Assembly: GCA_964618955.1 (NCBI GenBank)
Contig: CAZUBO010000002.1
Span: 1,582-65,581 of the forward strand
DNA: 64,000 nucleotides
Direction: 5' to 3'
Source: an uncultured Candidatus Saccharibacteria bacterium
GTDB taxonomy: Bacteria; Patescibacteriota; Minisyncoccia; UBA6257; JAKLIH01
Shown: piece after piece, positions 20,148 through 43,531 of the stretch
Numbering within the stretch: the first letter of the stretch is position 1
Layout: each line of letters opens with the position of its first letter
The notes under the pieces: model-generated
Told to the model about the DNA's origin: nothing
The model's input: only the letters and a program-made list of their open reading frames with translations
Databases searched by the model: none
Program-made: the position numbers and the translations under genes

Positions 20148-22259
20148 ATGAAACAATTAATTTCTGAAGGTAAGGAACTGAAAATATCAGAATTACCAGT
20201 TCCAACAATAAATGATGACCAGATTTTGGTTCAGAATTACTATTCTATAATATCTACAGGGACAGAGATTTCTAATATTTCTTTTACGAAGGATCCTCTA
20301 TACAAGAAGGTATTGAATTACCCTGATAAAATTCAAAAGGCTTTAAAGATGGTACAGACTAAAGGCTTAAGTGAAGTCTTACGTATTGGAATTGATTTCT
20401 TGAATATTCCAAGGGAATGAGGATATAGCTCATGTGGGAAGGTTATTGAAGTTGGGAAGAATATCAAAGACATCAAGGTTGGCGATATGGTAGCTTGTGC
20501 TGGGGCTGGGAAGGCCAATCATGCTGAGTATGTCGCAATACCAGAGAATTTAGCAGTCAGAGTTCCTAATAATGTAAATTGCAAGGATGCTAGTATTACT
20601 ACTATTGGAGCTATTGCTATGCAAGGAGTTAGACAATGCAATCCTTTAATTGGAGAGACTATTGTTGTAGTTGGATTAGGACTGATTGGACAATTAACAG
20701 CTTTGATTTTAAAAGCTAATGGAGTTAGAGTTATTGGAATTGAAACTAATGAAGCAAGAATTAAATTAGCTTTGAAGAATGGAATTAAAGATATTGTAAA
20801 TCCAATAACCCAAAATATCATAAATGAAGTTAAGTTTTTGAATTCTAATTTAGTTGACGGTGTTATCATTACGGCTTCAAGTAAGGATAACAAACTAATC
20901 AATCAAGCTTTAGAAATTACTCGAAAGAGAGGTAGAGTTGTAGCAGTTGGTAATATTGGATTAAATATCTTACGATCAGCATGATATGAAAAAGAAATAG
21001 ATTTAAAGATTTCATATTCTTATGGTCCAGGAAGAGGTGACTATATGTACGAAGAGAAGGGAGTTGATTATCCAATGGAGTTTGTGCGTTTTACTGAGAA
21101 GAGGAATATGGAATCATTCTTGCTGTTATTGAATGATAAGGTTATTAATTTAGATGGGATAATTAATAAAGAAACAAGTATTGATAATTGCATTTCAATT
21201 TATCAAGAATTAAAAGAAAGACCAGAATGATTAGGGGTAGCAATCAAATATGCTTTTGAAGAACAAAAAGAAATTTCAAAAGTAGTTGAAATACCTTCTA
21301 ATAAAGTTAGTGGTTCAAAAATTAGATTGGGAATTATTGGATTAGGGAATTTCTTTATGTCAACATTGTTACCAGCGATTAAAAAAGCTGAAGACTTAGA
21401 AGTTGTTGCTTTAGCTAATCGCAACAATATGAAGTTACAATACTTTAGTAAGAAGTTAAATGCTTCTATAATTACAACTGACTATGTTGAATTATTCAAG
21501 AACAAAGATATTGATTTAGTTATGGCGATAACCCGACATAACTTACATTTTGATTTGGTTAAAAAAGCTATTGAATTTAAAAAGAATTTGTTTATTGAAA
21601 AGCCGTTATGTATTAAGGAAGAAGAATTAAATGAAATTAAGAATTTAATTAATTCCAATTCAGAATTGCCTTTAATTAATATTGGTTTTAATCGTAGATT
21701 TTCTAGCTTAATTATGAAGCTAAAGGAGGTTTTGAATAACCCTGAAAAGCCTATGATTATTAACTATATGGTGAATAGTGAGAATTTTGATAAGAATATG
21801 TGAGTAAATACTGAGGAGGGTGGTGGACAGATACTTGGAGAAGGCTGCGCTATGATTGATTTAGGACTATACTTGGTTGGAAGCGAGATTGTTTCGATAA
21901 ATACAAACAAAGTTAAAGACAATTTACATTTAGAGACTGGGAATATTGTAAGCAGTATTAGCTTTAAGAATGGATCAGTCTTTAATTTGATTTATACAAC
22001 TTTGGGGAATAAGAAATGGCCTAAGGAGAGTATTAATGTATTCTATGATGGGAATAACTATATGATAAATGATTTTAAAGAATTAAAATCAAGTAATAAA
22101 AAATATTGTTTGAAGTTGAAAAAACAAGACAAGGGACATGTTAATGAGATTGGAAGATTAGGAAAAAGTTTGAAGGAAGGAGTTGGTTTAATTCCTTTGT
22201 CTGAAATTATCAGAGCAACTGAAATTGCTTTTGAGATTAATAAATCAAATAACAAATAA
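20148..22259 (+). CDS. Bi-domain oxidoreductase (N-terminal Zn-dependent MDR dehydrogenase + C-terminal Gfo/Idh/MocA NAD-binding domain)
   Basis: Five track ORFs (20148, 20487, 21045, 21327, 21852) are all in one frame and joined only by TGA. GLGLIGQ and GIIGLGNF Rossmann motifs in the two halves. Confidence 0.85.
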
Positions 22260-22262
22260 CCT

Positions 22263-24152
22263 ATGTGTGGTTTTAGTGGAATCATTGATTTTGAAAAGAA
22301 GAATGATTTAGAATCAAATCTTAAGAAGGGAATTGATGAATTAATTCATCGGGGACCAGATAATCAAGGTTTGTATTTTGAAAAAGACTTAGGATTGTAT
22401 TTTGGTTTTAATCGTTTAAAAATTATTGATTTAAAAGATGCTAGCAATCAACCATTTATAAGTGCTGATGGTTTGGTTATTATGATGTTTAATGGAGAGA
22501 TATATAATTACAAAGAATTGAAAAAAGAATTAAATGAGTTTGAATTTAAAACTGATAGTGATACTGAAGTATTGTTGGCTTGCTATCAAAAGTTTGGATT
22601 GAAATTTTTAGATAAAATTGAAGGGATGTTTTCAATTTGTATTTTTGATAAAAATGAAAACAAAGTTTTGTTAATTCGAGACCGCTTAGGAATCAAACCT
22701 TTGTTTTATTTGATTAATCAAAAACAAATTTTGTTTTCTTCAGAAATCAAATCAATTTTAAAGATGGATTTGATTAAAAAAGAAATTAATCCAACAGCAA
22801 TAGATAATTATTTAACTTTTTTATGTACGATTGATAATCAAACTCCATTCTTAAATGTTTTGAAGTTAAGACCAGGAGAGATGATGGCTATAAACTTAAA
22901 TGATAAAACAATTCTACATAATGAGTATTGAGATTTGAAGGTTAATGCAAATACTGAAAAAGAAGAAGATGTTATTAAAAATGTTTTTAAGAAGTTATCG
23001 GATTCGATTACTGAACAGATGCAAGCTGATGTTGATTTTGGTTGTTTTTTGTCTGGTGGATTGGATTCAAGTTTAAATGCAGTTTTGATGTCAGAGAAGT
23101 TAGGAGTGCCTGTTAAGACTCTATCAGTATACTTTGATAGCCCAAAATACAATGAAATACAATATTCTAGGATGATTAGTGACAAATTAAAGGCTACAAA
23201 GTTTGAGAAAGAAATTACTCAAAAAGACTTTTGATTGTTTTTAGATGAATTCAAATCAATAAATGACAGTTTAAATGGAGATTTAGTATGTTTTCCTTTG
23301 TATTTCTTATCGGAAATGACTCATTTGAATAATATCAAGATGATTCAAGTAGGAGAAGGGGCTGACGAGATCTTCTGCGGATATAGAAGGTTCAAATATG
23401 CCAAAATGATATGGCTAATTGATTGGTTATGAAGTAAGACTATAAAGTGAGATTACAGGATTAAGAAGGGGTTGATGGTTTTAGTTGAGTGAATGCTAAA
23501 GAAGGATAGTATGGGTTTTGAAATGACTAGAAGATGAAAGAAGGGATTACCTTGATACTTTGGAGCTAATAATATCTTTACTGAATTTGAAAAAGAAAGT
23601 ATCTTTGGAAGTGAATTTGGTAAGAATATTGATAAGAGATTTTCTGATAAAGTAATAAGCTTGCATTATAATTCAAAACATTCGGCATTACAGAAGATAA
23701 CATATCTAGAGACAAAATTAAGGTTACCAGAATTGTTACTGAATAGAGTAGATATGCTAACTATGAAGTTTTCAATTGAATCTCGGGTACCGTTCTTGAA
23801 TTCTAAATTAGTAGAATATGTTTTTAATGTATCGGATGGTTTGAAATTGAAGAATAATACTACAAAATATTTGCTTAAAAAAGCAGCTTTTGGTATTATA
23901 CCTAATGAGATAATCGACCGTAAGAAGCAAGGATTCTGAGCACCGTTCTTAGAATGATATATGTTTGATAAAGAATTTAATGCCAAAATTCAAAGTTTGA
24001 TTTTAAATTCAAAGTTATTAAAAGATAAAGTTTTGAAGACTGAATATGTTAAAGAATTATTGAAGGAATCAAAATTCAACGAAAGAACTATTTTAAAAGT
24101 TTGATCAATATTAATACTAAGTAATTTCTATGATTATTACTTTGCTGAATAA
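22263..24152 (+). CDS. Asparagine synthase (glutamine-hydrolysing)-like amidotransferase
   Basis: MCGFSGII Ntn glutaminase start and SGGLDSS PP-loop. ORFs 22263, 22935, 23235 and 23661 are in one frame. I hand-translated the gaps and found only TGA. TAA at 24150. Confidence 0.88.
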
Positions 24153-25452
24153 AATTAAAAAGATAATTAATGAATCAAAGACATTAGTTAATATATTTTT
24201 TACTTTTGGAGCTAGAATTCTAAAAGCTTTAACGATTTTTGTATTAATGATATTAGTAGCTAGGAAGTTTGGACCCGAAGGTAAGGGAATTATTACTATG
24301 GCTTTGTTCTTGCCAGACTTTTTGTATTTCATGATGCATTTAGGATTAGGAAATGCTAGTATATTCTTTATTAGTAATTCGAATGAGGATGAGAAGACAA
24401 TATATAATAATTCGGTATGACAGGGGTTGGGGTTGAGTATATTAGCGATAACTATCGTATTAGTGTTAAGATTAGTTAATCCTAATGTATTAGGAATTGG
24501 ATTTCCTACTTCTTTACTATATATTGCTTTAGCGATTGTACCGTTTTCTTTTCTAGAGACATTCTTTGAGAATTTGTTTGCTGGCAAACAAGAATTTCGA
24601 ATCTTTAATGGGATTATAATCTTGGATAGAATAGCATTGATAGTTGTAATGCTAGTTGCGTTTTTAAAATACAATATTAGTTTGAATTTTGTATTGAGTT
24701 TGATATTTATTAATTTGATTCTTCAAGTTACTACATATTTTGTTTTGTTAGTTAGAAGATACGGATTACCAAATATATTTAAATTCAATACTGGATATTT
24801 TAAGAAAGCAATTGACTTTGGATTTAGATCGTATTTGGCTTGTTTTTTATGCTATTTGGTATTGAGGTCAGACTTATATATGTTATCCGTTATGAAGGGA
24901 GTAAAGGATGTTGGATTGTATTCGGTAGCAACTAACTTTATTGACGCCATGCTACTATTATCAGGAAGTGCTTCAGCTGTTATCTTTCCTTTGATTAATA
25001 GGAACATATCTAGAGCTGGATATTATATCAAGAGGTTTACTAGCTTAATTTCTTTGGCTTCTTGTGGTATAATATTATTGACATTAGTATTTGGAAGACC
25101 TTTTATTAGTTTATTCTTTGGCCTTGAATTTGTATCAGCAAGTATGCCACTATATATATTATTGATTGCAATGTACTTCTGATCGCTATTAAGTATTCTG
25201 ACTCAATTCTTTGCTGCGAAGAACTATCCATGGAAGGCAGTATATATATGAATACCAGGGATAGTACTCAACATTGTGATAAATTGGATTTGAATACCTA
25301 GGTACGGAATGTTAGCTGCAGCTTGATCATCAGTCATTGCTTATGCTTTAACTTTCTTCTTACATTTTTGGTTGATTCAAAAGTATGAGAGAATTAAATT
25401 AAAAGAATTAATTTTTCCTTGAATAATTAAAACAAATCATGAACAAATTTAA
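24130..25452 (+). CDS. Wzx-like polysaccharide flippase (MOP superfamily)
   Basis: About 12 predicted TM helices. ORFs 24130 and 24427 are in frame, and the C-terminal part is restored through several TGAs. Overlaps both neighbours (operonic). Confidence 0.75.
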
Positions 25453-26188
25453 TATATCTGAGAATAGTTATGGGCATAAAAAAAGATTAGATTTTATTAA
25501 GGAGCAGATTATAAAATACTGTTTAACAAATAGTTTGGATGCTTTTAATATTAGAATGTTAGATGTTGGGTGCGGTTCGGGAACTTTAGTAACTTTACCT
25601 TTAGGGGAAGAAGGATTCAATATCTTGGGAATTGATTTAGATCAAACTTCTATTGATTTTGCTAGAATACAGAATATCTTTAGAAATGTCAGTTTTGAGA
25701 AAAAGACAGTTGAGGAAGTTGAAGGGGAATATGATATAGTACTAGCTTGTGAGATACTAGAACATTTAGAAAGACCAGTTGAATTCTTAAAGACATTGAG
25801 TTCAAAATTAAAAACTAATGGTATTTTAATTCTAACGACTCCTAATGGATATGGGTGATCAGAGAAGGAAGGAGATTTGGTTAAGTGATTGGGTAAGAAT
25901 TTGTTAATTAGAAGAATAATTAATAAATTCAAAAAACATTCACAAGATATTACTTTAAATGAGTCAGATAAGCATTTACAGAAGTTCAGCTATGAATTAT
26001 TACTAAATATCTTTAATGATTCAGGATTGAAAGTTGTTGGTAGTAAGAATGGTCCGGTATTTGGTGGACCAATAATCGAAAGAACTTTTGCAAGATTACC
26101 GTTATTCAAGAAGACTTCTAATACATTAGGAGATATCTTGCCTTCAAAGATGGCTTTAGTATGATATTTTGTTTTAAAAAAATATTAA
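25439..26188 (+). CDS. Class I SAM-dependent methyltransferase
   Basis: LDVGCGSG motif I, acidic motif II (GIDLD), ACEILEH. Joined across TGAs at 25856, 25886 and 26162. Confidence 0.8.
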
Positions 26189-26196
26189 TTTTAAAT

Positions 26197-26970
26197 ATGG
26201 ATATTAAAAAAGACATACAAAAATTCTGAAATTCAAAACCTTGTGGGACTTTTGGGAATATACCAGAAGAAGCTAGTATTGAATACTTTAATAGAATCAA
26301 AGAACGCCGATATCGTTTGGAGCCTTTTATCTTAGATATTGCTAAGTTTAGTGAATATACTGACAAGAAGGTACTAGAGATTGGGTGTGGTATTGGTATG
26401 GATGGGATTGAATTTGCTAAGGCTAAAGCTGATTATACTGGAGTTGATCTATCGGACCAGTCTATTTCCTTATGTAAAAGGCATTTTGAGTTGTTTTCCC
26501 AAACTGGGAATATATTAAATATCGATGCTGAGAATTTGCCTTTTCCTGATAATACTTTTGATTTAGTATACTCCTGAGGAGTATTACATCATATACCAGA
26601 TATGCAAAAAAGTATTAATGAAGTTTATAGGGTATTAAAGCCAGGAGGGAAAATTGTTATTATGATATATAACAAATATTCGTTAGTTGGGTTGCAACTA
26701 TACTTGGTTTATGGATTATTGAAGTTTAAGTTTTTCAAGAAATTCAATGATTTGTATTACAATTGCCACGAGAGTGTGGGGACAAAGGCTTTTACTGATT
26801 TAGAGAGTAAAAAAATGTTTAATGCGTTTAATGATTTAAAAGTCTTTAATATTGTAACACCATATGATGTTAGAATTACTAGGAATAGATTCTTACCAAG
26901 AATATTTCAAAAGTTAGTTCCAAGTCGTTTTGGATTCTTTAAGATAATATTGGGGAATAAAAAAAAATAA
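26197..26970 (+). CDS. Class I SAM-dependent methyltransferase (second, type 11-like)
   Basis: F-W-NSKPCG N-terminal motif, LEIGCGIGMDG motif I, FDLVYS-W-GVLHH. Three track fragments are in one frame. Confidence 0.8.
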
Positions 26971-26971
26971 T

Positions 26972-28774
26972 ATGTTTGTAACAAAGACAAGAATTAAAAA
27001 ATTATTGAAAAATCCTTTAGGAGGATTAATGTTTTTAAATCAATTTTTTAAGTCTTTAAAATTAAAGAATTTGAAAATTAAGAATGTTAAATATATAGAA
27101 AGTGTTTGACATTCATTAATTAATAATTCGGAATTTTTTAATTTTGTTATTGACAATAGTAATCCTTTTGAAGGGAAGGTTAGAATTTTTGATAAGGAAG
27201 TTAGTATTGATGAGATTGATTGGAATCGAGACTATTTTAATAATTTTCCAATAAAGAGGGACTACTATTTTAATTTGAGAGAATGAATAATTAAGAATAG
27301 TTTTAAAGGTTTTGATATTAAGAATGTTTGGGAATTATCTCGAGGATATTTCTTAATTGATTTGGCTAGTTTATATTACAAGACTAAAGACGAAAAGTAT
27401 TTAGAAGAATACCAAAAGATAATACTAGAATGAATTAAACAAAATCCATATTTGTATTCTAGCAATTGAACTAATCCAATGGAAGTAAGTGTAAGAATAA
27501 TTAATTGAATTACTAGTTTTCAAATTATTAATAAGGATGGTGTTAAATTTAATGAAGAATTTTTAAATATTTTTTTCAATCATATGAATTTAAGTTTTAA
27601 TTATTTGATTAATAATATTGAAACTTATCCTTTCAAATCAAATCATTATATGATTGATAATTTAGGAATATTGGTTTTGAGTTTGTTTTTGAATTCGAAA
27701 GATAAATGAATTCAAAAAAGCTTTAATAACCTATTGAAGGCTGAGTTCTCGCAATTTGATAGTGATGGGGTTGATTTTGAGAATTCAAGCAATTACCAGG
27801 TTCTAAAAACAGAGGCTTTAATGATGGCGTTTTTGATGTATAAGCAGAATTTGAATAAGCTAGAGAATGTTATACAGCTTGAAGATAGATATCTAGAGCA
27901 ATTAAGTAAGATTTTTGAATTTTCAATTCATTTGTTTAAGAATGAAGGTACTTTTTTGGCTGGTGATAATGACGAAACTGAGGTTTTGAGATTGCCTTTA
28001 AAGGCTAAGTTAGAGAAACTGTATTTAATGATGTTTGGAGATAAGGTTGATTTAAATAATAGCAAGATATATTTTAAGAGTGGTTATGGATTCTTAAGAA
28101 ATTCAAAATTCAATATTTTACTCTTAAGAGCTAATAATATTAGGAGTAGTCACTTCCATAATGATTTATTGAGCTTTCAATTAGTATATGGGGGTAAAGA
28201 CTTTTTTATTGATAGTAATACTTTTAATTACAATACGGATAAAGAGAAGAGGGTATCATACTTAAGAACTCAGAGCCATAATACTTGCTTTGTGAATAAT
28301 ATTGAACAAAGTAGGATTGAAGCTAATGATGCATTCTTAAGGAATAAATCTGTAAGATCAATATGCAAGAAGTCTAACGTATCGAGTACTCGAGATGAGA
28401 TGACTTTAGAAACTAAATACAATAATTTTTCACATTTGAGATCTTTGATATTTAATAAAGAACAGAACAAATTAAGTATTTTTGATACTTTCAATGGGAA
28501 AGTAAAATCTATTGAATGAAATTTGTTTTGTCCTAAAGAAGTTAAGGTATACAATAATTTAACTTTGAAGAATGTTTTGATTTTAGAGAATGATGGCTTA
28601 AAATTAATTTTGGAATTACCAGAGACTTTGAGTTACACTTTGAATAATGCTTTTGTATCTCCGAGATACAATACTGAAGAGATTGGAACTAATATAAAAT
28701 TAAAATTTGAAAATAAAAATAATATATCAAACTTATCATTTCAAATTGTTATCAAAGAAAATTATTTAAATTAA
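26972..28774 (+). CDS. Heparinase II/III-like (alginate-lyase superfamily) protein
   Basis: 600 aa restored from ATG 26972 through many TGAs. VWELSRGYF and NW-TNPMEVSVRIINW motifs in the N-domain. HFHNDLLSF and H-rich C-domain. Confidence 0.75.
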
Positions 28775-28778
28775 ATGT

Positions 28779-29978
28779 ATGAAGATATTAATTTATAGTC
28801 AATACTTCTATCCAGAGACTAATGCTCCAGCTAATCGTTTAAACGATATGGCTAGGTATTTAGCTAAAGGGAACAAGGTTTCGATTTTGACTGGATTTCC
28901 GAATCATCCTTTAGGAAGAATGATTGGGGAATACAAAATGAAATGATTAATGAAGGATACGGTTGAAGACATGGATGTTTATAGAAGTTTTTTGATTATT
29001 CCGAGGAAGACAAATTCAAAAATATATAGATATCTAAATTACTTTAGTTTTGCTTTTTCAAGTTTTTTGAATTTGTTTAGAATTGAAAAGCCTGATTTAA
29101 TGATTGTAACTAGTCCACCAATAAGTGTTTTAATCTTAGGATATATTTATGCTAAGATAAGGCATATACCATTAGTTATTGACTTAAGAGATTTATGACC
29201 TGAAGCAGCTATAAGTCTAAAGGTAGTTAAGAAGGGATTCGTTATTAATTGCTTAGAAAAATTAGTTGCTAAAGCATATATGTATTCTAAAAATATAATT
29301 ATCAATACTGAAGCCTTTAGGGACGCTTTGGTTAGTAAGTACGAGATTATGAATTCTAAGATTACATACATTCCTAATGGATTTGATATTGAAGGGAATT
29401 TAGAATTCAAAAAAGAATTTGTTGATGAGGGGGAATTCAAAATCTTTTATTCGGGATTGTTTGGTTGAGCTCAGAATGTTGATTTGATTATTGAGACAGC
29501 TAAGATCTTTAAAGACAAAGGTTCTTTAGTTAAATTTGTTTTGATTGGTGATGGGCCTTTGAAGGAAGCTTTGAAAGACAAAGCTTTGAAGTATCATTTA
29601 AATAACTTAGAGATTCTTGATTATCAAAAGAAAGATAATTTGTTCAAGATAATCAGTGAATGTAACTTAGGATTAATAACTTATGAATTAAATGATACTT
29701 TTCGTAAGAATATTCCTTCAAAGATCTTTGACTATATGTTTTTAGAGAAGCCGGTAATAATAAACTTAGAGGGGGAAGCTTCAAGAATAATAGAAGATGG
29801 TAAGTTTGGATTCTGTTATGAAACTAATGATCCTGCTAAGTTATGTAATAGAATTGAAGAGATTCTAACCACTATGGATTTAAAGACTAGAGGTAATAAT
29901 GGCTTTGAATATTTGAAGGCCAATTTCGATAAGAAGGAATTACTTAAAAGATTAGATAAGATATTAGAAGTTGAATAA
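28779..29978 (+). CDS. GT4 glycosyltransferase, WbuB-like
   Basis: MKILIYSQYFYPETNAPANR N-terminus is typical of WbuB-type GT4. Four fragments are in one frame. C-terminal E-x7-E region. Confidence 0.8.
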
Positions 29979-31240: not shown

Positions 31241-32474
31241 ATTCAAACAAAGTTTTACATTAGTAGAATTAATGATAGTAATAGCAATCTTAGCAATATT
31301 ATCTGCTATTGTAATTTTTGCATTAAACCCAGCCAGACTCTTTGATAACTTTAGAGATTCAAAAAGAGTAACTGATATATCTAGTATTAACAAAGCTATT
31401 GTATTCATGGAATCTTGAAATCAATCAGGTATTACCTATGGTACTACAACTAATGTATATATCTCTCTACCTGATTCAAGTTCTACTTGTAGCTCTTACA
31501 CACTTCCAACTCTTCCTACTGGATATACATATTACTGTTCTAATGCTACAAACTACAAGAATACTGATGGAACTGGTTGAATACCTATCAACTTTACAGT
31601 AGAAGGATCTAATAGATATCTATCAAGTCTACCAGTAGATCCAGTCAATAACAATTCTTTCTTCTATACCTACTATTCAGGAGGATCATATGAATTAACT
31701 GCAATACTAGCTAATCCCAATAAGAACTCTATTGATGACGAAGGAAGTCTTACATCAACCTTTGAGATTGGTAGTCCTAACCGAACATGGAATACACCGC
31801 TACAGAGGGATAAAGGATTGGTACTATACTACAATTTCAATGAAGCAAGTGGCAATGCGCAAGATATGTCGGGGAATGGATATACAGGAACTCTTAACGG
31901 GCCGGTCAGACAAACATTAGTTGGAACTGATCAATCGATGTATTACGATGCCAGTTCCTCAGATTATATCTCAACTCCTAGTTTTGCAATTCCTAATACG
32001 GGGATATTGACGATAGAGGCGTGGATGAAGAGTGTGGGTGCGGATAAGTATCAGTTTATATTAAGTGATGCATCTTATAATGAAATGTCTGGTTTTATAT
32101 ATATGGATAGACCAGTTAATACTAATAGTCTTTTGTATCTGTATGCCAACGGAACAGTATCGGCAGAGTCTTTGTTTACTAACTTCTTTCAAAGTTTAGA
32201 CAATCAATGACTCCATATAGTTATAGTTTGTGATTATACAAATAAAATAGGAAAAGCGTATAGAAATGGGGTTCAATTTGGAACTACTCAAAATCTTACT
32301 GGTGTGCCCGTATTTCCTTCGGTTGGTAGAGTTAAATATATTGGCGCATATAGTAGTGGCGCTTATAAAATCACCGATGGTTCTCTTGATGAAGTAAGAA
32401 TATATAATAGGGGATTGAGTGCGGAGGAGATATCAGCCCAGTATACCTCGACAAAAGGCCATTATGGCTACTAA
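31233..32474 (+). CDS. Type IV pilin-like protein fused to a LamG/concanavalin-A-type lectin domain, paralog 1 (413 aa)
   Basis: N-terminus KQS-FTLVELMIVIAILAILSAIV (prepilin-type methylation motif with E5). C-terminal LamG signature DGSLDEVRIYNRGLSAEEI. Three in-frame TGAs. I hand-translated it end to end. Confidence 0.85.
31247..32474 (+). repeat. Pilin-lectin repeat unit, copy 1 (most divergent)
   Basis: Aligns by eye, nucleotide for nucleotide, with 35779.. and 40777.. over the first 750 bp or so, and again over the last 100 bp or so. Confidence 0.85.
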
Positions 32475-32598: not shown

Positions 32599-32627
32599 TT
32601 GACTCTGAAAAGGGGGTATGGTATAAT
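32599..32627 (+). promoter_or_regulatory. Near-consensus sigma70 promoter for the 3D-domain gene
   Basis: ttgact, 17 nt, tataat, with TGG upstream of the -10 (tatggtataat). A perfect DnaA-box-like ttatccaca lies at 32583..32591. Confidence 0.6.
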
Positions 32628-33291: not shown

Positions 33292-33999
33292 ATGTTAACA
33301 ACTTTAGGAATTGTATTGAGTAAAAAAGATGTTGGAGAATACGATAGAGAGTATTGTTTTTTTACAAAGAATTATGGTAAAATAAAACTAATAGCAAAGT
33401 CGGTAAGAAAGCCATTATCGAAATTAAGCGGACAATTAGAACCACCGTCTTTGATTGAAGTTGTATTTGTACCGAACAATGATAAGGGATTGATTACTAC
33501 AGCATTAGTTAAAAAGAATTATTTAAAAGTTCGAAGAATACTAGAAAAACAAAAGACATACAATACTATAGTAAGAACTATTGAAGAATTAACTGAATAC
33601 AAACACAAGGATTTAATAATGTGAGGATTATTAAAAAATACAATTGATAATTTAAATAATTATGAATGGAAGTTAATTGAAATTGATTTTCTGGCAAAAT
33701 TCTTGAAAGTCTTAGGATTCTCACCGAATGTTGAACATTGTATTAAATGCCAAAGGAAAATTTTAAATGAAGTTAATATATATTTTGATAATGAACATTG
33801 GGGATTCTGTTGTGAGAAATGCAAAAATATTAAGAATGAAAAAGTAACATTACAAGTTTTTAAGATTCTATCAATTTTATTAACATTACCTTTAAAAGAG
33901 ATTTTGAATAGGGAATTGGATGAGCCAATATTAATTCAATACAAAAAAATACAGAGTTTGTTAAATAAGTATTTAAAACAAATAAAAAAATATTTTTAA
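33292..33999 (+). CDS. recO: DNA repair protein RecO
   Basis: OB-fold N-terminus (GIVLSKKDVGEYDREYCFFTKNYGKI), C-terminal zinc module CIKC..x..CEKC. One in-frame TGA at 33622. Confidence 0.8.
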
Positions 34000-34009
34000 A
34001 AAATACAAT

Positions 34010-35743
34010 ATGGGAATAAAAAATAGCCAAAACAAATTGTTTGCTTTAGGAATGATCACAACTATTATTCTAATAGTTGGAGGATATTTTGCTTGAAAAC
34101 TACTAACTCCTGGGAGTGTGAATTTTTCAATTGAAAGTCCTAAAGAGATTAAGTCAGGCGAGACACAAAAGATTAAATTCATTTGTGAGAATAATACCAG
34201 ACTAATTTTAGCTAATTCCCAAATTAAAATTAAATTACCAGACAATGCTTTTGATATTGATTACAGTCAAACTCCAACAATACTGTTAGGAGACGTAGCT
34301 CCAAAAGAAAAGATTGAAAAAGAAATTGAAGTAGTCTTCTATGGAGTTACGGGAGACAAGCCAAAGATTGAAGCTTCATTTGAATACAAGCCTCAAGGAT
34401 TCTCTTCAGTCTTTAAAAAAGACCAAGACTTTAGTATGTTGATTAATGGTTCAAGTATTAGTTTGAACATTACTAATCCAAACCAAGTTTTGCCAGAGAC
34501 TCCTTTTGATATGGGGATTGCTTGAACCAATCAAGCTAAAAAAGATTTTGAGAATTTGGTAGTAAAGATTAATTACCCAGCAGAATTTAATTTCAATTCA
34601 AGCGATCAAGAAGCTATAAGAACTGATAATACTTTTGATTTAGGTTTTGTTAGATCGTTTGAGCAGGGGAATATCAATCTTTCTGGATTCATGAATAGCC
34701 AAGGAGGAGAGAATAAGAAATTCGAAGTTTTGATAGGGATAGAATTAAAAGACATGAAGAAATTCTTTGTAATTAATAAATCGGAATCAGTAGTATCGTT
34801 AGTAAGTAATCCTTTGAGTTTAAACGTAAAGGTTAATGATGTAAGTACTTATTCAGCTAGTATTGGCGAGATGCTGCATGTAAGTTTGGATTACAAGAAT
34901 AACTATAATGTGCCTTTGAATAATATGGTATTAAAAGTTGTATTTGATGGTACATATTTTGATTACAAAAAGTTAATACCTAATAAAGGATATTTTACTT
35001 TTGGTAATAAAACTATTACTTGGAATGAAGTCCAAATACCAGAATTAGCAACACTAAATCCAGGAGAAGGGGGAAATATTGAATTCTCAATACCAGTAAC
35101 TGATAAATTCAATGTAAAGACATATGCTGATAAGAATTTGAAATTGAATATCAATGCTATAATAGAAAGCTTAACACCAGTTCAGGGATTGGATGTAAAT
35201 TCTAAAGTCAAAGCTAGTAGTAGCGCTATGGTGAAATTAAATGCCGATATGAATGTAGAAATTACTGGATTCTTTACTGACAACAAAACTACAATAAGCA
35301 ATTGTGGAAGCTTACCTTTAAAGGTTGGCCAGAAAACTTGTTATACCGTACATATGAAGATTAAGAATTATTTGAATGATGTAAATAATATATTGATTAC
35401 TACTGACTTACCTTACTATGCAAACTATACTAATAAATTCACAACAAGTTATAGCAATGCTGATTTTACTTTCGATACGTTTTCAAAGAAATTGATTTGG
35501 AAGCTAGATAGTTTACCAGCTAATTCCGGAGTAATTACAAAACCTTATGAATTAGTATTCCAAGTAGAAGTAGCTCCGACAACAAATGAAGCAAATTCAG
35601 CTATTCCGATTATAAATTCAACGAGTATGTCAGCTACTGATTCATTCACTCAGAATAAGATTAGTAAGACTTACAAAGAATTAATGTCAAATAATATCGG
35701 GGATGCATTAACTAATTCGGGATATGGCAGAGTAACTGAATAA
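34010..35743 (+). CDS. Hypothetical N-terminally anchored surface protein (577 aa), beta-rich
   Basis: ATG 34010 is in frame with ORFs 34118 and 34556, joined by TGAs. One N-terminal TM helix, then repetitive beta-strand-like sequence. No family recognised. Confidence 0.6.
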
Positions 35744-35770
35744 TATATATTAAAGATTAAAAAAAACAAT

Positions 35771-37009
35771 ATGCAAAAACAAAGTTTTACATTAGTAGAA
35801 TTAATGATAGTAATAGCAATCTTAGCAATATTATCAGCTATTGTAATTTTTGCATTAAACCCAGCCAGACTCTTTGATAACTTTAGAGATTCTAAGAGAG
35901 TAACTGATATATCTAGTATTAACAAAGCTATTGTATTCATGGAATCTTGAAATCAATCAGGTATTACTTATGGTACAACAACAAACGTATATATATCTCT
36001 TCCTGATTCAAGTTCTACTTGTAGTTCTTATTCATTACCAACTCTTCCTACTGGATACAATTATTACTGTAGTAATCCTACAACGTATAAGAATACTGAT
36101 GGTACTGGCTGAATACCTATCAACTTTACGGTTGAAGGATCCAATAGATATCTATCAAGTTTACCTATTGATCCAGTCAATAATTCTTCTTTTTTTTATA
36201 CCTACTATTCAGGAGGATCCTATGAATTAACTGCCATACTATCTAATCCCAATAAGAACTCCATTAATGATGAAGGAAGTCTTACATCAACCTTTGAGAT
36301 TGGTAGTCCTAATAGAACATTTAATACTCCACTACAAAGAGATAAAGGATTAGTATTATACTATGACTTCAACGAAGTATCTGGTAATGCCCAAGATCAT
36401 TCAGGGAATGGATATACAGGAACTCTTAATGGACCAGTTAGACAGACATTAGTTGGAACTGATCAAGCAATGTACTACGATGCCAGTTCCTCAGATTATA
36501 TTTCAACTCCTTCTTTTGCAATACCTGATACTGGAGTACTTACAATAGAAGTGTGAATGAAGAGCAAACTTGATACTACACATCATCAAACAATATTAGG
36601 CGATGCTAATCAAAACTCATCAATTAGTTATCTTTTTTTTATTAGATACGCGAATACAAATGTTTTATATTATGAATATGCTAATGGAACAGTTATAGGC
36701 ACTGTTAATTTTGCTAATTTTTTTCAAAACTTAGATGATCAATGAATCCATATAGTAGTAATTTGTGATTATTCAAATAAAACATTAAAAGCATATAGAA
36801 ATGGAATTCAGTTTGGAACTACACAAAATCTTTCGGGAACCCCACAATTTCCGTCAATTAACAGAGTAAAATATATTGGTACTTGATCGGGCTCTTCGCA
36901 TAAACTAACTGATGGCTCCCTTGACGAAGTAAGAATATATAATAGAGGGTTGAGTGCCGAAGAGATAGCGGCCCAGTATACAAATACAAAATCTCACTAT
37001 GGACAATAG
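35771..37009 (+). CDS. Type IV pilin-like / LamG lectin fusion protein, paralog 2 (412 aa)
   Basis: Same architecture as 31233. QKQS-FTLVELMIVIAILAILSAIV ... DGSLDEVRIYNRGLSAEEI. In-frame TGAs include the one in the WMKS motif. TAG stop at 37007. Confidence 0.85.
35779..37009 (+). repeat. Pilin-lectin repeat unit, copy 2
   Basis: Near-identical to copy 3 over about 750 bp, including a 233-bp block (36245..36477) that I found identical base for base to 41242..41474. Confidence 0.9.
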
Positions 37010-37056
37010 CATAAAAATGTTCTAGAATATTAATACATAATAAATAAAATACAAAT

Positions 37057-38385
37057 ATGAAAGCCAAGCAAAATCAAATGGAAAAATTAGTAGCCTTTTT
37101 AAAGGATAACGGATTTATCAATCTATCATCAGAACCTTATGGTGGGTTCTCAAGTTCGTATGATTACGGCCCTTATGGAGTTGAAGTAAAAAACAATTTG
37201 AAAAAGGCTTGATGAGATACTATGACAAAAGAATTTGATAATATTGTAGGGATTGATTCTTCAATATTAATGTCTCCTAAAGTATGAGAAGCTTCGGGAC
37301 ATTTAACTGCTGGCTTTGCTGATGAATTAGTTGAATGTAAAGAATGTCATAAGAGATTCAAGGCTGATGAATTAGAGAATGAAAAATGTCCAAGCTGTAA
37401 GGGGGAATTATCAGCTCCAAAGAAATTCAATGTAATGATGAAGACTTTTGTAGGACCAATCGAAGATAGTGCTAATATTGTATATTTGAGAGGAGAAGCT
37501 TGCCAGGGAATATATATGAATTTCTTATGAGCAAAGAATTCAGCTAGAATGAAAATACCTTTTGGTATTTGTCAGATTGGAAAAGCTTTTAGAAATGAAA
37601 TTACTCCTGGACCGTTTACTTTTAGAACCAGAGAATTCGAGCAAATGGATTTACAATTCTTTGTACATCCATTTGAAGCTGATAAATACTTTGAATTCTG
37701 AAAAGAGCAAAGAATGAATTACTACTTGAAGTTAGGAATTAGTAAAGGCCATTTGCGTTTTACAGATCATCCTGAAAACAAGTTAGCTCATTATGCTAAG
37801 AAGGCTTGTGATATTGAATATTTGTTTCCTTTTGGATGAAGCGAGATAGAGGGAATACATAATAGAACTGATTGAGATTTAGGGAATCATTCTAAGGCTA
37901 GCGGAACAGACTTATCATACTTTGATCAAGAGACAAAGGAGAAGTATATGCCATACATTATCGAAACTTCTGCTGGATGTGATAGAACTTTGTTAGCATT
38001 CTTATCAGAAGCCTTTGTTGAATTCGAAAAAGGTAGAAATGAAGATTCCGAAAGTACTGAATACTTGATGAATTTGAATAAGAAATTAGCTCCAGTTAAG
38101 GTAGCTATAATGCCTTTGATGAAGAACAAAGAAGAATTGCAAAAGAAGGCTAGAGAGATATATGATAATTTAAAGTTTGAATTCAATACTAAGTTTGACG
38201 ATAGTGGATCTATTGGAAAACGCTATCGTAGAATGGATGAGTTAGGAACTCCTTATTGTATTACAATTGATTTTGATACTTTGACTGATGATTGCGTTAC
38301 CGTTAGAGATAGAGATACAATGAAGCAAGAAAGAATTGAAATCAAAGAATTAAAAAATTTCTTAAGAGAAAAATATGCTTACTAA
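37057..38385 (+). CDS. glyQS: Glycine--tRNA ligase (alpha2 / GlyQS type)
   Basis: [26 protein letters not shown] (TGA TGA at 37210..37215), [42 protein letters not shown]-terminal anticodon-binding domain in ORF 37948..38385. Confidence 0.93.
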
Positions 38386-39682
38386 ACATTTAAGTAAAAT
38401 ACCTGATAAATGTGAGTTTGAAAAATATGTTTTAAAAAATGGATTGGAAGTTGTTTTAATTCCGATTAAGAATGTGTTTTCAGTTGATGCAAAGTTGACA
38501 GTTCGAGTTGGGTCACAATACGAAACTAAAGAATTGAGTGGAATATCTCATTTCTTAGAGCATATGAATTTCAAGGGAACTAAAAACAAACCTAATCATG
38601 CTTTGCTAACTAAAAGCATTGATGAGAATGGTGGATTACAAAATGCTTCTACTGGGTATGATTTTACTTCGTACTACGCACATATTGGTTTTGAATACTT
38701 AGAATGTATATTAGACTTCTTATCAGATATATTTGTAAATTCAATATTTCCAGAAGAAGAATTTCAAAAAGAAAAAGGAGTAGTTATTGAAGAGATTAGA
38801 ATGTATGAAGATCTTCCTAGAGTTAAAGCCGAAGAATTAATGTTAGAAGCTCTATACGGCGATCAACCTGCCGGAAGGAATATCGCTGGAACCGAAAAGA
38901 ATATTTTAAATATGAATCGATCGCAGATGGTTGCTTTTTATAAAAAATATTACCATCCGAAGAATGCTACTTTGTTTGTAATGGGTAATTTTGATAATGC
39001 TCAAACTAAAAAATTAATTAAAAAATATTTTGAATTTGAAGTTAAGACAAAAGAAATTAAATATCCTAAAGCCAAATTATTGATTGATGGACCTAAAGTT
39101 AATTCTGGAGCCAAAGACTTAAAAGAAACTCACTTTGTCTTAGGATTTAATGCTTTTAAGCCAGGGGATAAGAGAAATGCAATATTATCAGTAATTAATG
39201 GTATTTTGTCTGATGGTTTTAATAGCAGACTCTATCTAAATGTCCGAGAGAAGCTAGGTGGAGCTTACTATATCACTAGCGGGGTAGACAAGATATTTGA
39301 TAGAGGAGTTTTCTCGGTATTAGCTGGAGTAAATACAGCTAAAACAAAATTAATCTTAAGTGAAATTATTAAAGAATTAAGGATTTTGAAAAACGAATTG
39401 GTTAAGAAGGAAGAATTAGAGAAGACAAAGAATCGTATTGTAGGATCAATTCTAATGTCATTAGACGATCCTTATACTATTGCGGAACCAGCTTACGAAG
39501 CTATAACTTTTATGACTAAAGTAGAGACTTTCAAACAATACATTGATGCTATTATGAAGGTTACTGATAAAGATATCATGAAGATTAGTAAAGAATTGTT
39601 TAATGTGGAAAATATTAAGATGGGAGTAGTATCGAAAAAACAGGATGCTAAAGAGTTGAAGGATATAATCAAAACAATTTAA
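38375..39682 (+). CDS. M16-family (insulinase/pitrilysin-like) zinc peptidase
   Basis: HFLEHMNFKGT inverted zincin motif (HxxEH) and a downstream EE region. Uninterrupted 435-aa ORF overlapping the glyQS end by 11 nt. Confidence 0.88.
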   Translation: MLTKHLSKIPDKCEFEKYVLKNGLEVVLIPIKNVFSVDAKLTVRVGSQYETKELSGISHFLEHMNFKGTKNKPNHALLTKSIDENGGLQNASTGYDFTSYYAHIGFEYLECILDFLSDIFVNSIFPEEEFQKEKGVVIEEIRMYEDLPRVKAEELMLEALYGDQPAGRNIAGTEKNILNMNRSQMVAFYKKYYHPKNATLFVMGNFDNAQTKKLIKKYFEFEVKTKEIKYPKAKLLIDGPKVNSGAKDLKETHFVLGFNAFKPGDKRNAILSVINGILSDGFNSRLYLNVREKLGGAYYITSGVDKIFDRGVFSVLAGVNTAKTKLILSEIIKELRILKNELVKKEELEKTKNRIVGSILMSLDDPYTIAEPAYEAITFMTKVETFKQYIDAIMKVTDKDIMKISKELFNVENIKMGVVSKKQDAKELKDIIKTI

Positions 39683-39704
39683 TAATTCTTTTAAATTAAA
39701 AACT

Positions 39705-40733
39705 ATGGAAAGAGAAATACATATTTCTTTTAAAAGCTTATGAAGAATCTGCTTTGTCGGATTGATGGTTTTTGGATTAATATATTTTAGACAAATTCTA
39801 TTGATGTTCATGGCGTCTTTAATTCTATCAGCTTCAATGGAGAATATTATTAATTGGTTTGAATCTAAAAAAATCCCCAGAATATTTTCAGCTATTTCAG
39901 TATATATTTTATTAATTTTTATAATTGTTGGTTTGGTATATATTATCTTTCCACCTTTGTTTCAAAACATATTAAGCTTGACTGGAGAATTGCCAACAAT
40001 GCTAAAATCTAGTACCACTTCAAGATTTTTTAAGAATTATTTACCGTTTATTAATAACAAGAGTTTATTGACTAATGCTTTTACGACTGATAATACTTTT
40101 AGTTACGTCGGGAATTTAGTTAAGAATTTATCAAGAATTGTTTTAGGATTATCTAATTTCTTCTTAATCATCTTAGTAGCTTTTTATTTGTCTTTGGAGA
40201 GAAGATGATTTAAGAATATGCTAGAGATGTTCTTGCCTCAGACTTACAAAAAGTATTTTATTAGATTATGGGAGAAGGCAGAAAACAAGATGGTATTCTG
40301 ACTATATAGCCAGATTGCTTTGAGCATGTTTCTAACTAGTATGGCTATAATTATCTTCTATATCATGGATATCCCATATCCATTATTATCAGCTATTATC
40401 TTAGGGTTATTTGATTTTGTACCTTTTATTGGACCAATAATTGCTACAGTTGTTATTGTATTTATTAATATGGATGGGGTTACTAAGTCAGGGATACTAT
40501 TAGCAGTATGTTTAGGATTACAATATATCCAAAATATTTTTGGACCATATATTAGAAGCAAATTCTTGAAAGTTGATCCAATAGTTACTTTATTTTTTAT
40601 TGCTATCTTTGGAAAGTTTGGTGGGGCTTTAGGGGTATTTGTCGCTATTCCGTTATCAACAACTATTGTTGAATTTTTGAAGGATTTAACTAATGAAAAG
40701 ATTTGCGATGAGAGATTTAAAAAATTAATATAA
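39705..40733 (+). CDS. AI-2E family transporter (PerM/YhhT-like permease)
   Basis: About 8 TM helices. GLFDFVPFIGPIIA signature. Fragments 39762 and 40320 are in frame with ATG 39705 through TGAs. Confidence 0.8.
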
Positions 40734-40767
40734 TATGCTAGAATATATTAAAATTAAGAATTAAATA

Positions 40768-42006
40768 ATGCAAAAGAAAAGTTTCACATTAGTAGAATTA
40801 ATGATAGTAATAGCAATCTTAGCAATATTATCAGCTATTGTAATTTTTGCATTAAACCCAGCCAGACTCTTTGATAACTTTAGAGATAGTAGAAGAGTAA
40901 CTGATATATCTAGTATTAACAAAGCTATTGTCTTCATGGAATCTTGAAATCAATCAGGTATTACTTATGGTACATCAACAAACGTGTATATCTCTCTTCC
41001 TGATTCAAGTTCAACTTGTTCAACATATTCATTACCAACTCTTCCTACTGGATACAATTATTACTGTAGTAGTCCTACAACATATAAGAATACTGACGGT
41101 ACTGGCTGAATACCTATCAACTTTACAGTTGTTGGATCCAATAGATATCTATCAAGTCTTCCTATTGATCCAGTCAATAACAATTCTTTCTTCTATACCT
41201 ACTATTCAGGAGGATCCTATGAATTAACTGCCATCCTTTCAAATCCCAATAAGAACTCCATTAATGATGAAGGAAGTCTTACATCAACCTTTGAGATTGG
41301 TAGTCCTAATAGAACATTTAATACTCCACTACAAAGAGATAAAGGATTAGTATTATACTATGACTTCAACGAAGTATCTGGTAATGCCCAAGATCATTCA
41401 GGGAATGGATATACAGGAACTCTTAATGGACCAGTTAGACAGACATTAGTTGGAACTGATCAAGCAATGTACTATGATGCTTCTGCCAGCGACTATATCT
41501 CAACTCCTTCTTTTGCAATACCTGATACAGGAATACTGACGGTAGAGGCGTGGATGAAGAGTAAAATACAAGCTTCCATTTATCAATCAATAATAAGTGA
41601 TTATAATGAAAATCCTACAATAGGTTTTTTATGAATATTTAGAGCTATAAATTCAGATAACATTGTTATAGAATATTCCAATGGTACTATAAGCACTTCT
41701 ACGGGTTATTCCAATTTTTTTCAAAATCTTGATAACCAATGGATCCATATAGTAATAGTTTCTGATTATACCACTAAAACAATGAAAGCATATAGAAATG
41801 GAGTTCAATTTGGGAATACTATAAGTCTTACGGGTATTCCACAATTTCCCTCAACCAACAAGGCAAAATTTATGGGATCTTATGATCTTACAAGACACAA
41901 ACTCACCGACGGTTCCCTTGATGAAGTAAGAATATATAATAGAGGGTTGAGTGCGGAGGAGATAAGTGCTCAATATACAAATACAAAGTCTCGCTACGGA
42001 CAATAA
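40768..42006 (+). CDS. Type IV pilin-like / LamG lectin fusion protein, paralog 3 (412 aa)
   Basis: QKKS-FTLVELMIVIAILAILSAIV ... DGSLDEVRIYNRGLSAEEI. ORF 41782..42006 is its C-terminus. TAA stop. Confidence 0.85.
40777..42006 (+). repeat. Pilin-lectin repeat unit, copy 3
   Basis: See copy 2. Diverges from copy 2 mainly between about 41555 and 41735. Confidence 0.9.
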
Positions 42007-42030
42007 TTAAATAATTAATAAATATACATC

Positions 42031-43530
42031 ATGAATAAGAAACTATTTGTAACATGTGCGTTACCATACATCAATGCTGAACCTCATTTAGGTCATGTGT
42101 TTGAATTTATTCAAGCTGATTGTTTTGTAAGATTCCATAAGATAATAGTGGATGAGGTATATTTTACAGCTGGGACGGATGAAAACAGCTTGAAGAATAT
42201 CATTGCTAGCAAAGAAAATGGGGTTAGTATTAAAGACTGATTAGATCAGAAGTCAAATTCATTTTTGAAGTTGAAAGATGATTTTAAAATATCTTTTGAT
42301 GATTTCATTCGAACTTCAGAAGAGAGACATCACTTAGGAGCTCAGAAGCTCTGAAGCGCTATGGACAAGAATGATATTATCAAGAAGAATTATGAAGGGC
42401 TATATTGTGTTGGATGCGAAACATTCTATACGGAAGACGAATTAGTTGATGGCTTATGCCCAGAGCATAAGAAAGCACCAGAAAAGATTACGGAAGAGAA
42501 TTACTTTTTTGTATTGAAGAATTACCAAAAGTTTTTAATTGATAAGATTGAGAAGAATGAATGAAAGATTATGCCAGAAAGTCGTAAGAATGAAATGCTA
42601 AGTTTTATTAAAGGAGATCTATTTGATGTGAGTGTCACTAGAAGTAAAAAGAGAAGTGAAGGATTGGGAATTGAAATACCAGAAGATAAAGACCAAGTAT
42701 TATGAGTTTGAATCGATGCATTATCAAACTACATTAATGTTTTGAATTATGGATTAGAAGATACTTCTTTATTTGAAGAATGATGAAATAAGAGTGACGA
42801 GATATGGCATTTCTTAGGTAAGGGAATTTTAAGATTCCATGCAGCTTTTTGACCAGCATTCCTAGAATCAGCTCAGGTTAGAATCCCAACTCATTTATTC
42901 TGTCATGGATATATTACTTTGAATAATGAGAAGATGTCTAAGTCTTTAGGGAATAGTTTAAATCCAAGAGATTTATTAGTTAAATATCCGGTGGATTCAA
43001 TACGATATTATTTAATGAAGGATATTCCTTCAGGAGATGATGGAGATTTTAATGAAGTTAATTTGACTAATAGACATAACAATGAATTATGTGCTTCTTG
43101 AGGGAATTTGGTTTCTAGAGTATTAGCTTTAGGAGAACAATACCAAAAGCCAATAAAGTTGAATTCTAATGAATTGAAATCTGAAATTGAAGTTGCAATT
43201 AAGAATTATACTGAATGTTTTTCGAATGTAAAGATTAATGACGTTGTGAGTGTTTGTTTTGATTTGATTGCCAAAATCAATAAATACATTAGTGAACAAA
43301 AGCCTTGATCATTGATAACTAGTTCTGAATCTGACTTTGAAAGAATAATTTCAAGTTCTTTATATGGCGTTATATATGCTAATATGCTATTATCAGCCAT
43401 AATGCCAGATAGTAGTTCAAAGATATTTGATACTCTAGGAATAGAAGCTAAGAATTTGAAAGACTTAGAATCAATTAATGGTAGAGAATTCAATCTTAAA
43501 AAACCAGAGAATTTATTTAATAGAATTTAA
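42031..43530 (+). CDS. metG: Methionine--tRNA ligase (short form, 499 aa)
   Basis: PYINAEPHLGH (HIGH), zinc knuckle CVGCETF..CPEH, VL-W-V-W-IDALSNY, FHAAF-W-PAFL (TGA 42850), KMSKSLGN. Five track fragments are in one frame. Confidence 0.93.
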
Positions 43531-43531
43531 T

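Follow-up and report, generated by a model that had tools for sequence, protein, structure and literature searches.

The window, a 64-kb stretch of contig CAZUBO010000002.1 (64,000 nucleotides of assembly GCA_964618955.1), carries three paralogous genes, P1, P2, and P3, that lie dispersed among housekeeping genes and encode predicted type IV pilins with a lectin-like domain. Gene order runs from a heparinase-like gene through a glycosyltransferase, MscS, P1, a gene for a 181-amino acid (aa) protein, RecO, and a gene for a 585-aa protein to P2, and continues after P2 with GlyRS, an M16 peptidase, AI-2E, P3, MetRS, and SmpB. The three proteins are closely alike except in one block of the lectin-like domain, VAR1, and in a short second patch, VAR2, and it is these variable segments that concern us here (Table 1).

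The genes are intact in only one of two genetic codes. Under the standard code, the P1 open reading frame (ORF) ends at ...NFFQSLDNQ and the region is a patchwork of short ORFs. When TGA is read as sense, the total span of ORFs of at least 100 aa grows from 50.7 to 86 kb and three unbroken paralogous genes emerge. TGA and TGG interchange between the paralogs at conserved Trp positions (EAWMKS, NQWxHIV), and the TGA-encoded residues W62, W116, and W326 of P1 are invariant or nearly so in an 87-sequence alignment of the family. Because TGA falls at family-invariant Trp positions and swaps there with TGG, we take this genome to read UGA as tryptophan (translation table 4). An earlier model-generated note on this DNA, the sequence-only reading, had implicitly assumed the same, and the peptides and motifs that it quoted (LT.E.WMKS, NFFQ.LD.QW.HIV, a second patch at YIGAYSSGAYKI, and others) are present, but only when TGA is sense. 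No tRNA-Trp(UCA) was found in the window. Among genomic sequences, the pilin is most closely related to contig JAKLIH010000055 of a Patescibacteria metagenome-assembled genome (MAG), and the source organism is a Patescibacteria (Minisyncoccia, JAKLIH01-like) bacterium. The code is unusual yet already described, as UGA-to-Trp reassignment has been reported for the Minisyncoccia family JAKLIH01 (2026 preprint, 10.64898/2026.05.24.727570). Annotation of these pilin genes thus needs a code in which UGA is Trp; under the standard code they resemble broken ORFs.

P1, P2, and P3 share one architecture. At the N terminus, each has a class III signal with a prepilin cleavage/methylation motif (...KQS/FTLVELMIVIAILAIL..., Glu at +5) and a hydrophobic α1 helix, and each matches Pfam N_methyl (E = 1.5e-7 for P1 to 6.5e-7). 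C-terminal to the pilin moiety lies a ConA-like/LamG β-sandwich with a full-length profile match to Pfam Laminin_G_3 (ConA-like lectin/glucanase; E = 6e-20 to 9e-21, with P1 at 9e-21). AlphaFold2 (AF2) models of P1 and P3, built with the common 87-sequence alignment, show a long N-terminal helix (aa 10-62 in P1), a pilin head, and a 14-strand sandwich; the predicted local distance difference test score was 86 overall and 88-97 in LamG for P1, and 87 overall and 92-98 in LamG for P3. Foldseek matched the P1 model to the trypanosomal trans-sialidase lectin-like domain and the clostridial neurotoxin (BoNT/TeNT) HcN jelly roll (E ~1e-10, probability 1.00), while a profile search of PDB sequences returned a LamG-type S-layer domain and the CBM40 lectin domains of pneumococcal sialidases, with PilA and geopilin at the N terminus. 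We conclude that, by profile matches and predicted fold, P1-P3 are modular type IV pilins with a putative lectin-type tip module, and the Pfam, AF2, and Foldseek results all bear out the earlier description of them as pilin paralogs with a lectin domain. More than 500 homologs occur in Patescibacteria MAGs, often several per genome. In one group of relatives (P0043-P0108), the pilin stalk and head, which span the first ~45% of P1 and are about 60-73% identical, are fused to other C-terminal modules, which have the FGE-sulfatase/C-type-lectin fold (PF03781), match Fib_succ_major (PF09603), or have no Pfam match. Such varied modules on a common pilin scaffold make module swapping likely.

Table 1. 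Features of the window and divergence at the positional ortholog of P3 (dN and dS, nonsynonymous and synonymous divergence; L160, L163, and L164-166 are loci of relatives described in the text).
Feature	Coordinates	Strand	Description	Basis
P1	31233-32474	+	modular type IV pilin, 413 aa; N_methyl prepilin motif, α1 helix and pilin head aa 1-190, LamG module aa ~196-401	code-4 translation, Pfam, AF2, Foldseek
P2	35771-37009	+	paralog, 412 aa, P1-like architecture	code-4 translation, Pfam
P3	40768-42006	+	paralog, 412 aa, P1-like architecture	code-4 translation, Pfam, AF2
VAR1 of P1	32034-32192	+	aa 268-320	identity, entropy, DSSP strands, dN
VAR1 of P2	36566-36727	+		paralog alignment, dN
VAR1 of P3	41563-41724	+	P1-like four strands predicted	paralog alignment, dN
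VAR2 of P1	32346-32372	+	aa 372-380, loop before last LamG strand	entropy, identity
VAR2 of P2	36881-36907	+		paralog alignment
VAR2 of P3	41878-41904	+		paralog alignment
TGA codons of P1	31416-31418, 31578-31580, 32208-32210		W62, W116, W326	
Gene-conversion tract in P2	36245-36477	+	end of head and start of LamG; 233 nt, 100% identical to P3	
Partner tract in P3	41242-41474	+	233-nt run identical in P2 and P3	
P2 insertion unit	35745-37044	+	gene and short spacers; absent from collinear L163 and L164-166	blastn, gene order, junctions
P3 insertion unit	40734-42006	+	absent in L163 and L164-166; in L160 with homologous spacers	
AI-2E, window vs L160			86% aa identity, dN 0.076, dS 1.33	
MetRS, window vs L160			90% aa identity, dN 0.056, dS 1.44	
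VAR1, window vs L160			26% aa identity, dN 0.76, dS 1.42	
Conserved promoter	32599-32627		strong; downstream of P1	
585-aa protein	33986-35743		directly upstream of P2	
Surface-polysaccharide gene block	20136-29978		immediately upstream of pilin region	
Membrane/secreted protein cluster	50090-58212		large proteins without Pfam match	
TraG/VirB4-like ATPase	54503-56323		P-loop_TraG 1.6e-26, AAA_10	Pfam
YidC	58726-59415	-		
dnaA	61035-62558			
dnaN	62818-63942			
tRNA-Ile	1283-1356		anticodon TAT (UAU)	ARAGORN

Sliding protein identity among P1-P3 is 85-100% over the first ~265 residues, drops to 25-45% at alignment columns ~268-318, recovers to 65-80% past VAR1, dips a second time at ~363-380, and returns to 85-100% at the C terminus. 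Taken by segment, the paralogs are 34-43% identical in VAR1 and 30-40% in VAR2, compared to 85-100% in the flanks. Residues differ at 30-35 of 50-51 positions in VAR1 and at 37-50 of 361 elsewhere (Fisher p 2e-13 to 8e-19), and VAR1 also stands out from the remaining LamG module (Fisher p 2e-9 to 5e-14); in all three pairs, the most divergent 51-column segment begins at column 267. The sequence-only reading had proposed a hypervariable cassette of about 55 residues at 32030-32215. The localized divergence is far beyond chance, and those coordinates are correct within about 25 nt, although the 3′ end reaches some 8 conserved codons too far and the block is closer to 50-53 residues. Its description as almost unalignable was too strong, since VAR1 aligns at the identities given above with one single-residue indel and with fixed anchors. 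The second short patch that it noted is VAR2, and both segments are variable beyond the paralogs: in column entropies from 16 close relatives, the mean per 10-residue block was 1.65-2.09 bits in VAR1, 1.69 in VAR2 (1.5-2.85 at individual positions of aa 372-379), and 0-1.2 elsewhere.

The broken appearance of the genes under the standard code would also fit an artefact, in which misassembly, a frame error, or a wrong code creates the divergent block. We consider this very improbable: code 4 gives unbroken ORFs in which TGA falls at invariant Trp positions, each of the three copies has a unique context that differs from the others, and independent assemblies show the same pattern. A compensated frameshift was likewise rejected, as no DNA match between the VAR1 segments exceeds 11 nt and no out-of-frame similarity was detected between them.

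Within VAR1, variable and fixed positions follow the predicted fold. DSSP assigns four strands to the P1 model (274-278, 289-293, 300-305, and 310-315), with five loops around them, and the P3 model has strands at 273-278, 289-292, 299-304, and 309-314 with very high confidence, despite 38% VAR1 identity to P1. Fixed among the paralogs are Q274, I276, G287, R293, N296, Y302, Y304, G307, and F319, of which Q274, G287, R293, N296, and G307 are also conserved across relatives. Positions 276, 289, 300, 302, 304, 315, 318, and 319 are always hydrophobic, and the hydrophobic positions alternate (i, i+2) with positions that accept polar, charged, or aromatic residues. Across the LamG module there are 62 high-entropy positions, 37 of them in VAR1 and 7 in VAR2, and only 6 are always hydrophobic. 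We judged surface exposure by strand periodicity and hydrophobicity as a proxy, not from 3D coordinates. Given the alternation and the shared predicted strands, the variable residues appear to belong to the surface rather than the core, in the loops or on the outward side of the strands of a conserved fold. This agrees with the earlier proposal of a conserved scaffold with diversified exposed strands; variability is not scattered through the hydrophobic core. Variable positions 288 and 290 are rich in aromatics, and aromatic-rich positions are typical of binding sites.

The rate of amino acid replacement is raised specifically in VAR1. We estimated dN and dS by the Nei-Gojobori method (NG86) with code 4. 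Among P1-P3, dN was 0.61-0.71 in VAR1 and 0.01-0.17 in all other segments, and VAR1 exceeds its flanks 5- to 15-fold. The C-terminal segment combines a dS as high as anywhere (0.8-1.4) with a dN of only 0.04-0.14; thus, age alone fails to explain VAR1. NG86 dN/dS was 0.41-0.58 in VAR1 compared to 0.05-0.29 elsewhere in the gene, an elevation that the sequence-only reading had expected of a diversified surface. The same contrast appears at the positional ortholog of P3 in a relative (L160, an ENA assembly with AI-2E transporter, pilin, and MetRS in this order), where dN/dS was 0.54 for VAR1 and 0.04-0.06 for the flanking genes. Because NG86 dS within VAR1 is inflated by multi-hit codons, we instead counted synonymous differences at identical-residue codons, which were 0.31-0.45 in VAR1 and 0.16-0.39, 0.20-0.34, and 0.32-0.38 in three LamG framework segments, with no significant contrast between VAR1 and framework. 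Synonymous change in VAR1 is therefore no higher than in the LamG framework, and the excess is specifically nonsynonymous. With this count, the higher NG86 dS that would have made VAR1 of P1-P3 an imported cassette older than its flanks vanished, and we rejected that candidate. The ratio of VAR1 dN to framework dS was 1.49 in the youngest pair, P2-P3 (bootstrap 0.86-2.63), and 0.75-0.83 in the older pairs, in which dN is at a plateau.

Across the family, VAR1 is decoupled from the rest of the protein. It differs in each of 22 close family members, with a median pairwise identity of 31% and a maximum of 51%, and its identity is uncorrelated with that of the head (r = 0.05); in 48 pairs with heads at least 90% identical, the VAR1 median is still 31%. 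Length is kept nevertheless, with 1-2 single-residue indels in 16 relatives and all reading frames intact. The nearest neighbors of the three copies are incongruent from segment to segment. Heads pair across genomes (97-100% identical to those of relatives; 99% for P1 and P0003, 100% for P3 and P0008), whereas the LamG-N and C-terminal framework is 88-95% identical among the window copies and only 61-84% identical to any relative. P2 and P3 share an identical tract across the end of the head and the start of LamG; their longest concordant run comprises 34 polymorphic sites (permutation p = 2e-4), and the P1-P2 pair also gave a significant run (p = 0.0014). Among the three copies, dS climbs from the 5′ end (0.04-0.14) via the head (0.2-0.4) to the LamG module, and homology ends exactly at the CDS ends. 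The identical tract and the framework similarity among the window copies indicate that gene conversion homogenizes the conserved parts of these dispersed genes.

Recombination might also have produced the variable segments, if the LamG half or sub-blocks of VAR1 were exchanged among a larger paralog repertoire in the manner of Neisseria Opa or pilE/pilS. The incongruent neighbors and the gene conversion in conserved parts fit this idea, as does a VAR1 sub-block in which P2 and P0003 have 10 of 12 residues in common despite 36% identity overall. A further case is the pair L160 and L161, which are 99.94% identical over 1741 nt upstream (one mismatch; AI-2E dS = 0). Their pilins show 11 clustered mismatches in codons 2-13 (L160 nt 1818-1851), bounded by identical DNA, then 450 identical nt, and then break abruptly at codon ~227 (L160 nt 2493 onward) into unrelated LamG halves (VAR1 37%), with different downstream genes (MetRS in L160, RuvX in L161). 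Either the LamG half was replaced at strain level, with patchy conversion, or an assembly chimera formed across the identical 450-nt repeat that both share; were the crossover real, recombination between direct repeats would remove essential genes. Exchange is further opposed by the lack of partial or silent donors in the window, by the finding that no two of the 22 relatives share a VAR1, and by the synonymous divergence of VAR1 in P1-P3, which is not above that of the adjacent framework. We assign exchange of this kind a low probability. The word cassette, in the sense of an exchangeable unit, is also at odds with the gradual decay of identity at the 5′ side and with the absence of donor copies. 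A broader version, a recombination-driven variation system that combines copying of whole genes behind housekeeping genes, by an unrecognized mechanism that needs no element, with exchange of LamG halves or VAR1 across a population repertoire, seems to us rather unlikely as well. If it were true, strains that are nearly identical, perhaps including L160 and L161, would differ in binding surface and thus in host range or in phage or host escape.

Dedicated diversification systems find no support in the window, for which we scanned 46 ORFs against Pfam. A tblastn search with code 4 returned only the three full-length plus-strand genes and no further copy or fragment of the pilin genes or of any VAR1; the longest nucleotide matches to a second copy of VAR1 were ≤19 nt and chance-like. 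Silent cassettes of the pilE/pilS type were therefore rejected, as each of the three genes has a start codon and a prepilin motif, and a shufflon was rejected because there are no minus-strand or partial copies and no recombinase in the scanned ORFs. No reverse transcriptase, integrase, transposase, or invertase was found among the 46 ORFs. A diversity-generating retroelement (DGR) would mutate adenines of a variable repeat from a template repeat. DGRs are frequent in genomes of the candidate phyla radiation, and some relatives fuse the same pilin scaffold to the FGE-sulfatase/C-type-lectin fold, the usual DGR target fold. In the window, however, there is no template repeat and no reverse transcriptase in the ORFs scanned, and VAR1 lacks an adenine bias: 61 of 159 nucleotides are invariant among the copies, 22 of them A's, and invariant A's are as frequent as invariant T's. 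The differences also fall on all codon positions (36/24/38). A DGR is refuted for the window, and we rate its likelihood as next to nil.

Comparison with relatives revealed how the genes sit in the chromosome. A new finding is that each of P1-P3 is a clean single-gene insertion, a presence/absence polymorphism, within a syntenic housekeeping backbone whose corresponding sites are empty in relatives. A close relative (L163, GCA_964644345.1) is collinear from RecO to SmpB and lacks precisely P2 and P3, and in a more distant relative (L164-166) the backbone runs complete from the heparinase-like gene through SmpB with none of the three pilin genes. By MetRS dS (0.38 between the window and L163, compared to 1.44 for L160), the window and L163 are sisters relative to L160. 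Because L160 has a pilin gene with homologous spacers at the P3 site, this gene predates the split of the window and L163, and most parsimoniously it would have been lost in L163. Each pilin gene directly follows the stop codon that ends the gene before it; P1 has MscS on one side and, on the other, the terminator and conserved promoter of the gene that comes after. A scan for promoters and terminators gave no enrichment over shuffled sequences. There are no target-site duplications, terminal repeats, or shared boundary motif at the three insertion sites and no integrase or transposase there or in the scanned ORFs, and we thus rejected a mobile-element signature at these sites. The placement of P2 and P3 between essential genes of the same strand suggests co-transcription and simultaneous expression of the two rather than on/off switching.

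Two observations concern the surroundings of these insertion sites. Identity to L163 is 83.8% upstream of the P3 site (37045-40733) and 92.5% downstream (42007-43986), with window-L163 dS of 1.04 for AI-2E compared to 0.38 for MetRS, which may point to a recombination breakpoint where the pilin gene is inserted. The 585-aa protein has an N-terminal membrane anchor, is kept in the L163 and L164 backbone, and matches Chlam_OMP6 below the cut-off (E = 2.7e-4); it may be a surface protein.

Taken together, these results probably describe a dynamic, adhesin-like pilin family in which a diversifying binding surface is carried on a conserved scaffold. The three complete, co-oriented genes would each supply a pilin stalk and head bearing the LamG lectin-like β-sandwich at the C terminus. 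Stalk and head, which would be needed for pilus assembly, and the LamG framework would be under strong purifying selection and kept alike among the copies by gene conversion. In the four-strand β-meander of VAR1 with its loops, and in the VAR2 loop, replacements would pile up at solvent-facing positions at a rate equal to or above the synonymous rate, while core-facing hydrophobics, turn Gly and Asn residues, and segment length stay fixed. With exposed positions changing over a fixed core and length, each copy and each relative would present a different surface on the same fold. This surface is most likely the ligand-binding site of a pilus adhesin for glycans or proteins on host or substrate surfaces, and VAR1 is a likely determinant of what the pilus sticks to. 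In the family as a whole, complete genes would come and go by duplication or insertion and by loss, scaffolds would be homogenized, and the binding surface would be under diversifying selection. This account presumes that the proteins are incorporated into pili, that the surface binds, that selection rather than drift shaped it, and that all three copies are expressed, all of which we infer. Each paralog might then recognize a different ligand or escape recognition, as the sequence-only reading had put it.

Several findings weigh against this account. NG86 ω within VAR1 is only 0.4-0.6. Every comparison is at or near saturation, and the best ω, 1.49, has a bootstrap interval that spans 1. A ratio of 0.5-1.3 at surface sites rests on sites picked for variability and is circular. 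The selection test is limited by this saturation and because the region was chosen post hoc. No pilus machinery or further pilin gene was found in the scanned window ORFs. In distant, standard-code Patescibacteria, the whole LamG module diverges between paralogs; the sharply localized pattern is therefore a property of the clade of the window, and the sharpness could in part reflect recent homogenization of the remaining LamG. The rates thus suggest diversifying selection on VAR1 but do not prove it.

The same figures leave room for relaxed constraint, under which VAR1 and VAR2 are structurally tolerant segments that drift neutrally and whose diversity has no functional meaning. An NG86 ω below 1, similar proportions of nonsynonymous and synonymous differences (pN ~ pS) at variable sites, and the place of the VAR1 region as the least conserved part of the broad family consensus would all be expected of such drift. 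We nonetheless hold it to be unlikely, because length and reading frames are kept, the anchors are strictly conserved and the strand architecture is confidently retained, VAR1 dN already plateaus in the youngest pair with a ratio to framework dS of 1.49, and the aromatic-rich positions 288 and 290 resemble those of binding sites.

The adhesin-like reading has precedents. P1-P3 have the architecture of PilC of Streptococcus sanguinis, a presumed tip adhesin whose lectin module binds glycans via its concave face (PMC9934059). PilC shares with P1-P3 the class III signal and N-methyl motif, the pilin moiety, and a C-terminal ConA-like/LamG-type β-sandwich; PilC differs in an extra Ig-like module and in being encoded by a single-copy gene inside a pil locus (PMC9934059), whereas P1-P3 come from three dispersed genes that lie outside any pilus locus, and their divergence is concentrated in a localized hypervariable block. 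Among Patescibacteria, Saccharibacteria PilX1 is a lectin-like minor pilin, and TM7x PilX1 and PilX2 likewise have large C-terminal accessory domains for which host glycan binding was proposed (PMC11623550). They come from a different class of Patescibacteria, with no multi-copy family or hypervariable block reported, and the PilX1 domain was unrecognized by CD-Search (PMC11623550), while the window proteins match Pfam Laminin_G_3. P1-P3 thus belong to a known class of modular lectin pilins and are organized like the Opa-like dispersed families of variable adhesins.

In Neisseria, Opa proteins are encoded by dispersed complete paralogs with a conserved framework, their hypervariable surface segments set receptor specificity, and the loci recombine with one another. 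Dispersed complete paralogs, localized hypervariable blocks, and gene conversion recur in P1-P3, an analogy with no homology. Opa proteins are β-barrel outer-membrane proteins with phase-variable repeats, and pilE/pilS relies on promoterless silent cassettes and G4-initiated conversion; the window showed no silent copies and no phase-variation repeats. In the PilV shufflon of IncI plasmid R64, Rci-mediated inversion exchanges the variable C-terminal segment of a type IV pilus adhesin, which sets recipient and surface specificity; the window has no inverted partial copies, and its scanned ORFs include no recombinase. Within the same fold family (Pfam Laminin_G clan), the eukaryotic LamG/LNS domains of neurexin, laminin, and agrin also concentrate ligand binding and variability in some of their loops and strands; their 'hypervariable surface' lies along one rim of the sandwich and varies via alternative splicing.

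A search of the open-access literature turned up no account of hypervariable LamG pilins from Patescibacteria. Host recognition by these ultrasmall episymbionts is largely unknown, and type IV pili are leading candidates for it. We offer the hypothesis that specificity is determined by ~40 exposed positions of the LamG tip module in a multi-copy pilin, whose copy number and alleles vary among close relatives. Conserved scaffold, hypervariable surface, and gene conversion make up a classical adhesin architecture, and a known principle would thereby extend to a new lineage.

Other parts of the window also bear on the cell surface. The polysaccharide block upstream of the pilin region encodes a GFO/IDH-ADH fusion, an asparagine synthase-like protein, a Polysacc_synt flippase, two methyltransferases, a heparinase II/III-like protein, and a GT1 glycosyltransferase; L164 also carries the genes with which the block ends downstream, those for the heparinase-like protein and the glycosyltransferase. 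Farther downstream, the large membrane or secreted proteins are grouped around the TraG/VirB4-like P-loop ATPase, and this cluster may be a conjugation-like type IV secretion system, of a kind reportedly described for Patescibacteria. The predicted tRNA-Ile has a UAU anticodon, which is uncommon for AUA in bacteria, where a lysidine-modified CAU is usual. Finally, dnaA adjoins dnaN, YidC lies nearby on the minus strand, and cumulative GC skew climbs monotonically across the window, which likely adjoins the replication origin.

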